Source: a virus (Duplodnaviria > Heunggongvirae > Uroviricota > Caudoviricetes). Taken from it: a stretch of DNA of 40,808 nt. The notes beneath the pieces are model-generated. The model saw only the letters and a list, made by a program, of their open reading frames with translations, had not been told where the DNA came from and did not search any database. Shown in pieces: positions 10,952-15,100 of the stretch. The translations under genes and the position numbers were made by a program. Within the stretch, counting starts at the first letter, position 1. Each line of letters opens with the position of its first letter. The stretch lies in the IMG/VR virus record IMGVR_UViG_2778261545_000004; one strand, written 5' to 3'.

Positions 10952-11761
10952 ATGAATAATCTGATGGTCATTGATGGTATTGAAGTTCGTCGTGATGCTT
11001 ATGGGCGTTACAGCCTGAACGATCTGCACAGGGCAGCCGGGGGAGAACAAAAAAACCGCCCGAAATACTGGCTCTCCAATAAGCAAACCTGTGAATTGAT
11101 TGAACAACTTTTCACCGAGGGTGGAATTCCGCCTCTGGAACAAAATCAACCAGTTAGCGTCATTAATGGCGGAAATAACCAGGGGACGTATGTCTGCAAA
11201 GAACTGGTGTATGCCTATGCAATGTGGATCAGCCCGTCATTCCATCTGAAGGTGATCCGTACTTTCGATATGGTAACCAGCGTACCGGAAAAATTATCCG
11301 GGCAGGCTGCTGACAAGATGCAGGCTGGAGTGATTCTGCTGGACTTTATGCGCAGGGAGTTAAACCTGTCTAACTCTTCAGTGCTTGGGGCCTGTCAGAA
11401 ACTCCAGGAGGCTGTTGGCTTACCGAATCTGGCACCGCGCTATGCCATTGATGCTCCTGCTGACGCGCCTGATGGCTCAAGTCGCCCGACACTGTCGCTG
11501 AGTGCACTGCTGAAACAGTATGGTATCCGCCTTACGGCTAATCAGGCATATCACCAGATGGCGAAGCTGGGGATCGTCGAGCAGCGCGAACGATACAGCC
11601 GTACCGCGATTAACAACATCAAAAAATTCTGGTCGCTGACGGCGAAAGGCTGCATGTTCGGCAAGAACATCACCAGTCCCGCAAATCCGCGCGAGACGCA
11701 GCCGCATTTCTTCGAATCCCGATTCCCTGAGCTGTTAAAGTTGCTCGATACCGTTCATTGA
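10952..11761 (+). CDS. KilA-N domain protein (antirepressor-like)
   Basis: 269 aa, N-terminal KilA-N signature (YSLNDLHRAAGG...WLSNKQTCELI...YAMWISPSFHLKV); strong AGAGGAG RBS. Confidence 0.75.
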   Translation: MNNLMVIDGIEVRRDAYGRYSLNDLHRAAGGEQKNRPKYWLSNKQTCELIEQLFTEGGIPPLEQNQPVSVINGGNNQGTYVCKELVYAYAMWISPSFHLKVIRTFDMVTSVPEKLSGQAADKMQAGVILLDFMRRELNLSNSSVLGACQKLQEAVGLPNLAPRYAIDAPADAPDGSSRPTLSLSALLKQYGIRLTANQAYHQMAKLGIVEQRERYSRTAINNIKKFWSLTAKGCMFGKNITSPANPRETQPHFFESRFPELLKLLDTVH

Positions 11762-11762
11762 G

Positions 11763-12758
11763 GTGACCGTGAGAGCACTACTGACCCCTGAAATAGCCCC
11801 GCGTATGGGGATCGTATTGTTCAGACCAGGTTCAGAGCTGATGCCCCTGTTTATGCAGGGGCGTGTACTGCTGGAGCCTGAGCCGGAACGTTATTCATCT
11901 TTCGCCAGTGGTGCCGTTCCCGCGGCATCACAACCGCTGGCGGATGATCCTGCTGTTCGGGCCGTGTTCCGCAATGAGGCAGTGATCCGTCGTGCTGGTG
12001 GCGTAGAATGTCTTGAAAGCTGGTTACTTCGTGAAAAAGGCTGCCAGTGGCCTCATTCCGACTGGCACAGCGAGAACATGACCACAATGCGACACGCGCC
12101 GGGCGCAATCCGTCTGTGCTGGCACTGTGATAACCAGCTGCGCGATCAGTTCACGGAACGGCTGGAATCAATGGCAACGGATAACTGTGCCCGCTGGGTG
12201 TTGTCTGTTGTGCGTCGGGATCTCGGTTTTGATGATAGTCACGTTGTGACAATGCCGGAACTGTGCTGGTGGCTGATTCGTAATGACCTGGCGGATGCCT
12301 TACCGGAAAGTGCAGCCCGTAAGGCACTGAGATTACCAAAGCCTGTTGTGCCGTCTGTCACCCGGGAAAGTGACCTTGTGCCTTCGGTTCCTGCCACCAG
12401 CATCATCCAGGATAAGGCAAAAAAGGTGCTGGCGCTGAAAGTGGATCCGGAGTCGCCGGAGTCTTTTATGTTACGCCCAAAACGTCGCCGCTGGGTTAAT
12501 GAAAAGTACACGCGCTGGGTTAAGACACAGCCGTGTGCATGTTGTGGAAAGCCCGCTGATGATCCCCACCACCTGATAGGCCACGGTCAGGGGGGAATGG
12601 GTACAAAAGCGCATGACCTCTTTGTGTTGCCTTTGTGCAGAAAGCATCACGACGAGCTGCATGCGGATACCGTGGCATTTGAAGAGAAGTATGGCTCCCA
12701 GCTGGAGCTGATATTTCGTTTTATCGATCGTGCGCTGGAAATAGGCGTGCTGGCCTGA
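11763..12758 (+). CDS. DUF968-like prophage protein with Cys/His-rich C-terminal motif (putative nuclease)
   Basis: 331 aa; C-terminal PCACCGKPADDPHHLIGHG...CRKHHDELH; start codon uncertain (GTG). Confidence 0.55.
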   Translation: MTVRALLTPEIAPRMGIVLFRPGSELMPLFMQGRVLLEPEPERYSSFASGAVPAASQPLADDPAVRAVFRNEAVIRRAGGVECLESWLLREKGCQWPHSDWHSENMTTMRHAPGAIRLCWHCDNQLRDQFTERLESMATDNCARWVLSVVRRDLGFDDSHVVTMPELCWWLIRNDLADALPESAARKALRLPKPVVPSVTRESDLVPSVPATSIIQDKAKKVLALKVDPESPESFMLRPKRRRWVNEKYTRWVKTQPCACCGKPADDPHHLIGHGQGGMGTKAHDLFVLPLCRKHHDELHADTVAFEEKYGSQLELIFRFIDRALEIGVLA

Positions 12759-12775
12759 TTTTGTGGAGAAATTTG

Positions 12776-13141
12776 ATGCGTGATATTCAGATCATCCTTG
12801 AACGTTGGGGGGCATGGGCAGCTAGTGATAGCTCAGGAGTGGACTATTCGCCTATAGCTGCTGGGTTTAAGGGACTTCTTCCCTATACCAGTAAGGCACG
12901 CCAAGCTTGTTCAGATAATGATGCGCTAATTATTGAAAGTTGCTTGGAGCAACTAAAAAAAAGAAAACCTTATGAGCATTCTCTACTGGTTGCGCATTAT
13001 TTGTACGGGTTTTCAAAGCGGAAGATTGCCAAAGTACAAGGAAAGGATGAGAAATTAATCCGTATAGAAATATTGTTAGCAGAGGGATTCATTGATGGTT
13101 GCCTTTCTACTCTCGATATTCATTTAGATATGGAGTTATAA
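12776..13141 (+). CDS. Late-gene antiterminator Q (QuuD-like)
   Basis: 121 aa from ATG 12776 (GGAG upstream); MRDIQIILERWGAWAA N-terminus typical of this Q family. Confidence 0.8.
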   Translation: MRDIQIILERWGAWAASDSSGVDYSPIAAGFKGLLPYTSKARQACSDNDALIIESCLEQLKKRKPYEHSLLVAHYLYGFSKRKIAKVQGKDEKLIRIEILLAEGFIDGCLSTLDIHLDMEL

Positions 13142-13150
13142 TAAAAATAA

Positions 13151-13197
13151 CCCCGTAAACTTTATGTTTACGGGGGAAGGTTATTTCTTTTTTTTAT
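13151..13197. terminator. Bidirectional hairpin terminator between Q and the convergent TIR-like gene
   Basis: CCCCGTAAAC-TTTAT-GTTTACGGGG with T-rich tracts on both sides. Confidence 0.6.
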
Positions 13198-13996
13198 TAC
13201 TTTCAGATAATCGTCGGTTTAATGTGTATTTTATTTGGTTCCTAATCATTTTTTCAGGAATGTCATATTTGTCTAAGAATGATATTATTTCATCCTCGTC
13301 AAGCAATCCATTCTTTATAATTTCATCTATCTGTTTTTGTAGATACCAAACATCCTTCTGTTCTACAGGAGTTAAATTCATATGGCTATTTATGGAGTTG
13401 ATAGTAGCATCACGTTCAAGAACTCTAATCCTTTGATTTAATGAACGAGTGTTTTGTAATATTTCAGATAAAAGATCTTGTTCAGTACGTGGTTTTACTT
13501 CTTCAGTTGGAGGGTATTGATCTAAAGCTCGTTTAAAATTGTTTTCAAATTGCTCCCAGTATGTATTAAAAACTTGCTTTAGAATACGGTCATCTAAAGA
13601 TTTATCGACAAGACAATTGTTTATTGTCCTTACTAATTCCCAAACACTCTCTTTATTTGGCGTTGTGTGATTGAATTGAGCAAGTGGATCTTTTAAATCT
13701 TCTGGTTTTAAGTCAATCAAGAATGTACAAACTTTATTTGTTGAAAGTCCTTTTGCTAGTGCTCCTGTTTCAAACAAAATCCATGGTTTATTTTTATTTT
13801 CTTGTGTCAAACATACAATTCCGACAGATACATCTTTTAATTTATCATTAATTTCAGAGAACCATATAGCGCCACGATCAATATCTCTGGTTGAAATCCA
13901 TGGCTGCGAAGCTTGGATAACACACTTCAGCCAGTCGCTAATAAGTTCTGCAACAGCTTGACTTCTTTGCCCAGACCAACTTATGAACACTTTCAT
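13181..13996 (-). CDS. TIR-like domain protein with C-terminal helical domain (moron)
   Basis: 271 aa from MKVFISWSG (TGGAG 6 nt upstream); motifs DIDRG, VGIVCLT, PWILFETG match TIR consensus by eye; AT-rich; reverse orientation between Q and lysis genes. Confidence 0.55.
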   Translation of the reverse strand: MKVFISWSGQRSQAVAELISDWLKCVIQASQPWISTRDIDRGAIWFSEINDKLKDVSVGIVCLTQENKNKPWILFETGALAKGLSTNKVCTFLIDLKPEDLKDPLAQFNHTTPNKESVWELVRTINNCLVDKSLDDRILKQVFNTYWEQFENNFKRALDQYPPTEEVKPRTEQDLLSEILQNTRSLNQRIRVLERDATINSINSHMNLTPVEQKDVWYLQKQIDEIIKNGLLDEDEIISFLDKYDIPEKMIRNQIKYTLNRRLSESNKKKK

Positions 13997-14120
13997 TATG
14001 TACTCCATGTAATCACTCAAAAGGAACTGAAATTTACATTAAAAATTAAATAAAATCACTCACGCGGTCCGCAGAAACCATTGTAATCTGTTATGAGTGG
14101 TTACTTCGCCACACAACTTA

Positions 14121-14150
14121 AACCCGCCGTCGAGCGGGTTTTGTCGTTTC
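14121..14150 (+). terminator. tR'-like rho-independent terminator upstream of the lysis cassette
   Basis: AACCCGC-CGTCGA-GCGGGTT followed by TTGTCGTTTC; expected target of Q antitermination. Confidence 0.5.
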
Positions 14151-14293
14151 TGGTCCTAGGGATTAATTGCTTCTGCCCTATCCCGCAGTTATCCATTGGC
14201 TCGGCTTCTTTTACGTTTCCGCTTCTGATTTGCGGTTCGTGGTACACCCTCAATTTGCACCTCCTTTATCGGCGAGGTGAGAGATAACTACAA

Positions 14294-14620
14294 ATGCCTC
14301 ATAACCCAAATACCTGGCTGGAGTTGTTCCAGAGCTGGTGGCGTGGAGACACACCACTGGGCGCAGTAATTATGTCGATCGTTATGGCTGGCTTGCGCAT
14401 TGCCTATTTTGGCGGTGGTGGTGGCTGGAAGCGAAAAACGCTCGAGATTTTTCTCTGTGGCGCTCTGACACTGACTTTTGCATCCGCTCTTGAGTATGTC
14501 GGATGGCCTAAATCTCTTTCTGTTGCCATTGGTGGCGGCGTTGGGCTGATCGGGGTCGATGCTATTCGTGGTGCGGCAATGAGAGTAATCGGTAACAAGT
14601 TTGGTAGCTCGAAGGAGTAA
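14294..14620 (+). CDS. Holin (lambda S-like, class I)
   Basis: 108 aa, three hydrophobic segments, charged C-terminus; pattern resembles lambda S (YxGG...C..I.W). Confidence 0.7.
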   Translation: MPHNPNTWLELFQSWWRGDTPLGAVIMSIVMAGLRIAYFGGGGGWKRKTLEIFLCGALTLTFASALEYVGWPKSLSVAIGGGVGLIGVDAIRGAAMRVIGNKFGSSKE

Positions 14621-14623
14621 TTT

Positions 14624-15100
14624 ATGCAGGAACTAAATCCTCAGCGTAAAGCTTTCCTTGATATGGTGGCCTGGTCAGAAGGAACGGATAACGGGCGACA
14701 ACCGACACGTAACCACGGTTATGACGTTATTGTTGGCGGCGAACTGTTTACTGATTACTCCGATCACCCTCGCAAACTTGTCACGTTAAACCCCAAACTC
14801 AAATCAACAGCAGCCGGACGTTACCAGCTTCTTTCCCGTTGGTGGGATGCTTACCGTAAGCAACTTGGACTGAAAGACTTCTCTCCGAAAAGCCAGGATG
14901 CTGTTGCGCTGCAGCAGATTAAGGAGCGTGGCGCTTTACCGATGATTGATCGCGGTGATATTCGTCAGGCAATCGACCGTTGCAGCAATATCTGGGCGTC
15001 GTTACCTGGTGCAGGTTATGGTCAGTATGAACATAAAATAGGCGACCTGATTGCCCGATTTAAAGAGGCTGGTGGGGAAGTAAATGAAGCTGAGATATAA
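14624..15100 (+). CDS. R: Endolysin, lambda R-type lytic transglycosylase
   Basis: 158 aa, near-identical to lambda R as recalled (QRKAFLDMVAWSEGTDNGRQ...GYDVIVGGELFTDYSDHP); AAGGAG RBS. Confidence 0.9.
   Translation: MQELNPQRKAFLDMVAWSEGTDNGRQPTRNHGYDVIVGGELFTDYSDHPRKLVTLNPKLKSTAAGRYQLLSRWWDAYRKQLGLKDFSPKSQDAVALQQIKERGALPMIDRGDIRQAIDRCSNIWASLPGAGYGQYEHKIGDLIARFKEAGGEVNEAEI

Follow-up and report, generated by a model that had tools for sequence, protein, structure and literature searches.

A prophage TIR-domain gene between antiterminator Q and a probable late promoter: a candidate stand-alone anti-phage defence with a conserved core and a hypervariable tail

We analysed a 40,808-nucleotide stretch of viral DNA (IMG/VR record IMGVR_UViG_2778261545_000004; the window), which is an Escherichia coli lambdoid prophage with an HK97-type head and a contractile tail according to the annotation of a near-identical prophage. 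Our subject is a single gene on the minus strand that lies between the antiterminator gene Q and the lysis cassette and encodes a protein with a TIR domain. An open reading frame (ORF) is present at 13181–14020 and specifies 279 amino acids (aa) when TTG is taken as the start; PGAP, annotating this gene in other E. coli genomes, uses the ATG at 13996 instead, which yields a 271-aa protein with MKVFISWSG at its N-terminus. The gene and the parts of its product are as follows.

13181–13996, minus strand: coding sequence of the TIR protein, 271 codons plus stop (13181–13183), from the ORF list and the PGAP annotation of other genomes
14004–14007, minus strand: Shine–Dalgarno sequence GGAG, 7 nt 5′ of the ATG at 13996, read by eye from the sequence
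13613–13996, minus strand: TIR domain, aa 1–128
13769–13783, minus strand: codons for W72-I-L-F-E76, the W-x3-E motif with the putative catalytic glutamate, invariant in divergent relatives
13412–13612, minus strand: conserved helical neck, aa 129–195 (mean pairwise identity 69%), with long helices at 136–160 and 172–203
13184–13411, minus strand: hypervariable C-terminal helical module, aa 196–271 (mean pairwise identity 25%); most matches among representative sequences end at about residue 195

The gene is AT-rich, GC content being 0.31–0.35 across 13000–14049 as against 0.52–0.58 upstream and about 0.50 downstream. Its DNA was found at ≥99% identity in 25 of 5,426 complete E. coli genomes, from strains isolated from dogs, poultry and humans, where the annotation is always ‘TIR domain-containing protein’; the gene is thus already known as such in RefSeq. 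Between the window protein and WP_000862379.1 there is one difference, R261Q.

Profile and structure searches both identify the N-terminal part of the protein. Pfam TIR_2 (PF13676) matched with 30.9 bits against a gathering score of 28 (E = 4.2e-7; profile positions 1–93 of 122), and an AlphaFold model built from 101 homologs (pLDDT 77) has an alternating strand/helix core of the TIR type in residues 1–128. The best Foldseek matches of this model were SPARTA TIR-APAZ, SpbK, AbTir, TcpB and PdTIR, its structural neighbours including the effector-type TIRs SpbK, TIR-SAVED and TIR-STING. These data show that the protein has a TIR domain, in which the motifs MKVFISWSG, DIDRG, VGIVCLT and PWILFETG occupy aa 1–9, 38–42, 58–64 and 71–78, respectively.

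Sequence searches against the PDB were less sensitive. The single protein gave just a weak match to a plant TIR (E = 0.7) and a profile of the close family (alignment A2) gave zero TIR matches, so that a more divergent profile was required (alignment A6, comprising 71 relatives 28–46% identical to the query). With this profile RPPT-TIR (7xoz) was found at E = 0.003, followed by RPP1, BtTir and AbTir. W72 and E76 are among just 10 invariant columns of the same alignment, and they align with the W and E of WCLDEL in RPPT-TIR and RPP1. Counted from the printed alignment, the glutamate is residue 158 of the RPP1 chain, the catalytic glutamate of that protein. The W72-x3-E76 motif is therefore intact and putatively NAD+-cleaving. 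Mean identity of the TIR domain is 88% across genera and W-x3-E is invariant even in divergent relatives, which argues for strong selection on the active site.

Beyond the TIR domain the protein is helical, all secondary-structure elements past residue 136 of the AlphaFold model being helices. Conservation divides this half in two: among the 101 close homologs mean pairwise identity is 88% for aa 1–128, 69% for aa 129–195 and 25% for aa 196–271, with a sharp break near residue 195. The neck helix at 172–203 carries a 3-4-3-4-3 heptad when read from the sequence (L176, I179, T183, L186, I190 and L193), and the close family shows no variation at L176, I179, L180 and T183. The heptad suggests a coiled-coil oligomerisation element, and the neck probably holds subunits together. 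Of the best 150 matches drawn from 1.84 billion representatives, most cover only query residues 1 to about 195, and the matching proteins are mostly 245–300 aa long (range 107–390, the shortest being fragments). A conserved 195-aa module followed by a variable tail of about 75 aa is therefore the general layout, and we propose from its variability that the tail, aa 196–271, is the specificity or sensor part. When aa 129–271 were modelled separately (pLDDT 84, pTM 0.40), a Foldseek search against the PDB returned nothing significant, the best matches having E ∼ 1 (COMMD9 and TrpR). A helix-turn-helix had been considered on the basis of the motif SG..SEDEI...L..YD.P; it finds no support, as the C-terminal model has no significant PDB match.

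The initial annotation, made by eye from the sequence, had described an AT-rich single gene on the reverse strand that carries these TIR motifs, with a glutamate in PWILFETG at the position of the catalytic residue, and a helical C-terminal half. All of this is borne out: the ORF and the motifs are present, the TIR assignment survives profile and structure searches, the glutamate is the invariant one of W-x3-E and aligns with RPP1 E158, and the model is all-helical where predicted.

What the initial annotation had overlooked is the homology of the protein to the TIR component of a published defence system. PADLOC gave one match, to TIR-TM (E = 1.7e-57, 193.5 bits, profile positions 1–246 of 293). 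The TIR-TM model corresponds to gp02 of phage P2_AC1, which itself scores 393 bits, and we confirmed gp03 and gp04 as the 1TM-TIR and 2TM-TIR components. The three-gene P2_AC1 locus was cloned by Rousset et al. in 2022 and protects against lambda, LF82_P8 and P2-like phages (PMC9122126). Gp02 is 38% identical to the window protein over aa 1–180 (BLASTP E = 2e-42); both proteins have an N-terminal TIR domain with the motifs FISWSG...PWIxFExGAL and a helical continuation, and both are cargo in a hotspot of E. coli temperate phages. They differ in that gp02 has 315 aa and a C-terminus unrelated to that of the window protein, in that P2_AC1 has two membrane-protein genes (1TM-TIR and 2TM-TIR) upstream of the TIR gene whereas the window has none, and in that the P2_AC1 carrier is P2-like and the window lambdoid, the slot differing as well. 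Hidden membrane partners were considered and rejected, since tblastn with gp03 and gp04 as queries, run over the whole window, returned nothing but matches with E > 6. The window gene is therefore not a 2TM-1TM-TIR system, its partners having been searched for and found absent. We also considered that the gene might be truncated or frameshifted, prompted by the PADLOC match ending at profile position 246 of 293 and by a run of eight A residues before the stop, and rejected this because homologs are consistently about 265–275 aa long and because the one-base length difference from other E. coli copies (13142) falls outside the gene.

Relatives of the protein are numerous. There are 2085 homologs in 90% clusters and 11,257 representatives at 50%; PHROG 13899 together with wider relatives comprises more than 3,000 clusters at 50% identity (E ≤ 1e-30). 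A megablast search against 50,697 phage records gave zero matches, and tblastn afterwards found phages mEp390 and P2_AC1. Gp47 of coliphage mEp390 (YP_007112464.1) is 59% identical, and the order there is again Q, terminator, TIR gene (reverse) and holin. Relatives adjoin Q and DUF968 in 11 viral loci, and one stands alone beside Q in Enterobacter and Klebsiella prophages; elsewhere a relative adjoins an integrase (Shewanella) or AbiJ (Halomonas). Proteins 60–70% identical occur in Shewanella, Halomonas, Pseudoalteromonas, Nitrospira, Bermanella, integron cassettes and many uncultivated phage contigs. In the chromosome 2 superintegron of Vibrio cholerae CP053803 (locus L007, 5832–9187) the gene forms a single-gene cassette of 1116 nt between 138-nt VCR-like repeats, and this cassette is duplicated two cassettes apart, the two proteins being 100% identical. 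A tested integron TIR cassette was not found in our literature search.

A conserved partner gene was absent from 80 viral loci, five genomic contexts and the single-gene integron cassettes. Since the gene travels alone in such vehicles, it must act alone or with universal host components. The P2_AC1 membrane partners in particular are missing beside relatives in 78 of the 80 viral loci and are present only in two that are identical to P2_AC1. These solitary relatives raise the question of whether the membrane proteins of P2_AC1 are themselves perhaps dispensable. We observed a 74%-identical TIR of the P2_AC1 type (locus L086) and about 35 other loci of that type without membrane partners (the P2_AC1 locus itself being L015, 1803–3948).

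The regulatory elements and genes that surround the TIR gene are as follows.

10952–11761: KilA-N gene
11763–12758: DUF968/HNH gene
12761–13141, plus strand: antiterminator Q, 126 aa (Pfam Phage_antitermQ PF06530, E = 9.6e-49), convergent with the TIR gene and likewise GC-poor
13151–13175, minus strand: intrinsic terminator of the TIR transcript, a 10-bp stem with 6 GC pairs, then UUAUUUUUAU (−16.6 kcal/mol, z = −4.4)
14027–14056, plus strand: probable late promoter pR′ (CTGAAA-18-TAAAAT), 9 of 12 matches in the promoter scan, lying in a conserved block from its −10 element onward
14047–14150, plus strand: conserved block with the pR′ −10 element, a leader containing the −10-like TTGTAAT, and tR′; the right edge of the variable cargo (alignment A3)
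14120–14141, plus strand: tR′-like intrinsic terminator, an 8-bp stem followed by a T-run, conserved in related prophages, its fold alone being modest (−13.1 kcal/mol, z = −1.8)
14294–14620, plus strand: holin S of the lambda family, first gene of the lysis cassette (Pfam Phage_holin_3_1, E = 9.8e-25)
14624–15100: GH24 lysozyme gene

These elements place the TIR gene more exactly than before. When the flanks of the cargo are aligned, similarity stops just past the Q stop codon and returns at about 14047. From there on a block of about 100 bp, defined in an alignment of six loci that carry the TIR gene, a KAP NTPase gene or a two-gene cargo (A3), is shared by all prophages of this Q family regardless of cargo; it comprises the −10-like TAAAAT, ACGCGGTCCGCA, the −10-like TTGTAAT and the terminator at 14120–14141. 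Its conservation and layout lead us to read this block as the probable late promoter of Q, the pause/qut region and tR′. The TIR gene thus lies between Q and the probable pR′/tR′ block, upstream of that block. In Stx phages the stx genes lie downstream of tR′, and the slot of stx to which the gene had been assigned in the initial annotation is hence off by one regulatory element. Cargo between Q and pR′ is out of reach of transcription from pR′; it is also locked in, flanked by a regulator and the site on which this regulator acts, two elements that have to be passed on as a unit.

The hairpin at 13151–13175 had likewise been described as a bidirectional terminator, which is correct for one of the two transcripts. 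It is canonical for the minus-strand (TIR) transcript only, the stem being followed by UUAUUUUUAUUAU, whereas on the plus strand the U-run begins 12 nt past the stem, so that as a terminator of the Q transcript it is only weak or atypical. Each alternative cargo supplies a hairpin of its own at this position. The earlier statements that no partner gene is adjacent and that the locus is not a canonical Thoeris system were upheld: the gene is flanked by Q and, on its other side, by the late promoter and holin, the tblastn search for the P2_AC1 partners found nothing, and there is neither a ThsB match in PADLOC nor an adjacent effector. A 64-aa, hydrophobic-looking ORF at 14093–14287 (plus strand) overlaps the conserved pR′/tR′ leader 5′ of the holin gene; it is absent from the PGAP annotation of the genomes inspected and is probably non-coding.

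As many E. coli genomes have the exact Q allele (≥99% identity) as have the TIR gene, namely 25, and the accessions listed for the two coincide. Prophages with a Q that is 78–81% identical have other reverse-strand cargo in the slot, or a slot without a gene. The alternative cargo, taken from E. coli prophages with related Q (L011, 2912–4243; L012, 2915–4327; L097, 2905–4459; all minus strand), is of three kinds: a 443-aa KAP NTPase that matches the PADLOC candidate PDC-S20 (E = 1e-175) and PHROG 8614, with weaker similarity to PifA and QatA; a 149-aa protein with a DUF6731 protein of about 313 aa (PHROGs 8552 and 7651; zero PADLOC matches); and a pair of 140 and 289 aa, the latter matching PDC-S42 (E = 8e-33) and PHROG 3243. 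A described defence hotspot between Q and holin was not found in our literature search, the coverage of which did not extend to recent E. coli prophage-defence screens.

We favour, with moderate confidence, the explanation that the protein is a stand-alone NAD+-hydrolysing TIR enzyme (NADase) carried as prophage cargo, which would defend the lysogen against other phages through abortive infection in a manner like that of SpbK. On this explanation the protein would have three working parts, the TIR domain (aa 1–128), the conserved neck (129–195) and the hypervariable tail (196–271). In the lysogen it would be made but inactive, since a TIR active site arises only where neighbouring domains pack head-to-tail. 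On infection by a foreign phage, a multimeric component made by that phage would be bound by the variable tail; the TIR domains would then cluster head-to-tail and form a composite active site, and the resulting hydrolysis of NAD+ would stop the infected cell from supporting phage growth. That the gene is expressed in the lysogen, that its product has NADase activity, and what the trigger and the outcome would be are all inferred from the example of SpbK and of other NADases of the TIR type.

SpbK, from ICEBs1 of Bacillus subtilis, is a protein of 266 aa in which a TIR domain is combined with a small helical sensor; it is activated when the portal dodecamer clusters it, and it makes N1-cADPR (PMC12847820). 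The sensor of SpbK is, however, N-terminal and its TIR domain C-terminal, the reverse of the order in the window protein; the conserved coiled-coil neck is without an equivalent in SpbK, the host of SpbK is Gram-positive, and the PDB searches gave no sequence-level match between the two. Because of this lack of a sequence match and the reversed domain order, we regard the window protein as SpbK-like in its putative action but not as a member of the SpbK family. Closer to the host of the window, Wang et al. (2024) surveyed 64 E. coli TIR clusters and reported E. coli TIR proteins whose triggers are phage structural proteins (portal or tail fibre) and whose TIR active-site residues are needed; in TIR-V and TIR-IX the C-termini are superimposable and the N-termini differ (PMC11350192). 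The window protein is probably neither of these two, since its conservation pattern is the opposite. Nor is it Thoeris, CBASS or Pycsar. There are zero matches to ThsB models in PADLOC and no adjacent effector of the ThsA type, and ThsB lacks a neck-and-tail extension; as for the TIR effectors of CBASS, Pycsar and type III CRISPR, no SAVED, STING, cNMP-binding or CARF match was found in Pfam or PADLOC, and the C-terminal half is all-helical.

Several points weigh against a defence NADase. A TIR domain alone is no guarantee of defence, since of 32 E. coli TIR candidates put to the test, 20 failed to protect (PMC11350192). The P2_AC1 TIR, the one relative that has been tested, shares 38% identity, and its test always included the two membrane proteins. 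PHROG 13899 is labelled ‘unknown function’, and an NCBIfam search gave no match. The AlphaFold model is weakest around the catalytic helix, with pLDDT < 50 at residues 75–83, and it is variability that points to a sensor role for the C-terminal half, which has no recognisable fold relative. Finally, expression in the lysogen is an assumption, as a scan of 13990–14300 found no sigma-70-like promoter with at least 8 of 12 matches on the minus strand upstream of the gene, and an earlier scan at a threshold of 9 of 12 had likewise given none upstream of it.

A further challenge comes from the proposal that the protein senses infection and makes a signal, as ThsB does, converting NAD+ into a messenger of the cADPR or His-ADPR type that activates an effector encoded elsewhere. 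In Thoeris of types I, II and IV it is the TIR domain that produces the signal, SpbK itself makes N1-cADPR (PMC12847820), and the P2_AC1 relative sits with two membrane proteins that its authors proposed to be messenger-activated effectors (PMC9122126). We nevertheless consider this unlikely, since no conserved neighbour was found in the viral loci, genomic contexts or integron cassettes, and a gene that moves alone among Enterobacteriaceae, Vibrio, Shewanella and Halomonas cannot rely on a matching effector in each host; ThsB is likewise without a PADLOC match, and effector-type TIRs are among the structural neighbours. It is quite unlikely, in our judgement, that the protein instead serves its own phage, whether by lowering NAD+ or destroying host immune nucleotides during lytic growth (counter-defence) or as an addiction toxin. 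Such a role would fit the tight linkage of the gene to one Q allele, its position abutting the late promoter region, the lack of a lysogenic promoter in the scan and the occurrence of a homolog in mEp390, a viable phage; but the gene is on the strand opposite to every early and late lytic transcript and has its own terminator, the usual layout of cargo expressed in the lysogen. Furthermore, no antitoxin-like partner is present, the integron cassettes show that the gene exists outside phages, and in the cited literature the counter-measures to TIR immunity are sponges, nucleases and NAD+ reconstitution pathways rather than TIR proteins.

The initial annotation had offered two functions, a stand-alone anti-phage effector, which we favour, and a mimic of host TIR signalling resembling TcpC or TlpA, which the distribution of relatives and the other cargo of the slot disfavour. 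The latter would be a virulence factor that is delivered to animal cells and dampens Toll-like receptor signalling, as for TcpC, TlpA and BtpA (TcpB). The protein does share the TIR fold with these factors (Foldseek E = 4e-3 to 8e-3 for TcpB/BtpA and PdTIR), some of which are prophage- or island-borne in pathogens; morons of lambdoid prophages often encode virulence factors, and the carrier strains come from dogs, poultry and humans. In the known mimics, however, the TIR domain is C-terminal and follows a targeting region, whereas that of the window protein begins at residue 1, so that a region for targeting or uptake would have no place ahead of it. Relatives 60–70% identical are spread over free-living or marine bacteria, integron cassettes and phage contigs, and the other cargo of the slot matches candidates for phage defence rather than virulence genes; we therefore prefer a defence role and think host mimicry very improbable. 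We attach equally little weight to a catalytically silent TIR acting as an interaction scaffold, or to a decaying remnant. Many TIR domains signal without enzymatic activity, and the E. coli candidates that gave no defence (PMC11350192) would be in keeping with this idea; against it stand the intact frame, the high identity of the TIR domain across genera and the invariance of W-x3-E in divergent relatives.

If the favoured explanation, that of a stand-alone TIR NADase defence, is combined with the distribution data, a broader but tentative picture emerges, which we consider possible rather than probable. The protein would belong to a family of one-protein immune receptors with a nearly frozen core of TIR domain plus coiled coil and a swappable tail of about 75 aa that sets phage recognition; the family would have spread by itself through lambdoid prophages, other phages and integron cassettes; and the gap between Q and pR′ would be an undescribed defence hotspot with cargo inherited together with the Q/qut pair. 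Were this true, both membrane proteins of 2TM-1TM-TIR would be accessory and not essential.

Abortive infection by TIR NADases, prophage-borne defence and cargo hotspots are all established, and nothing here is conceptually new. Confirmation would extend the repertoire of E. coli and the Enterobacteriaceae by a single-gene TIR defence that is both very compact and very widespread, and would bring into question the need of the three-gene 2TM-1TM-TIR system for its membrane proteins. The Q–pR′ gap of SfV-like/lambdoid prophages would then also stand out as a place to seek new defence genes; candidates already present in it are the DUF6731 pair, the PDC-S42-like protein and the KAP NTPase (PDC-S20). 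With its catalytic and oligomerisation core frozen and its tail hypervariable, the protein offers a convenient system for studying how small TIR proteins recognise phages; for specialists, the interest lies in this architecture, in the solo spread that includes integron cassettes and in the Q–pR′ slot.

A minor length difference was noted next to Q. At least one further E. coli copy (L001) has one base more than the window in the A-run that follows the Q stop codon (13142), and most of the E. coli matches listed span 1002 bases rather than 1001. This is the sole length difference within 13100–14100, and it lies outside the coding sequences of both Q and the TIR protein.

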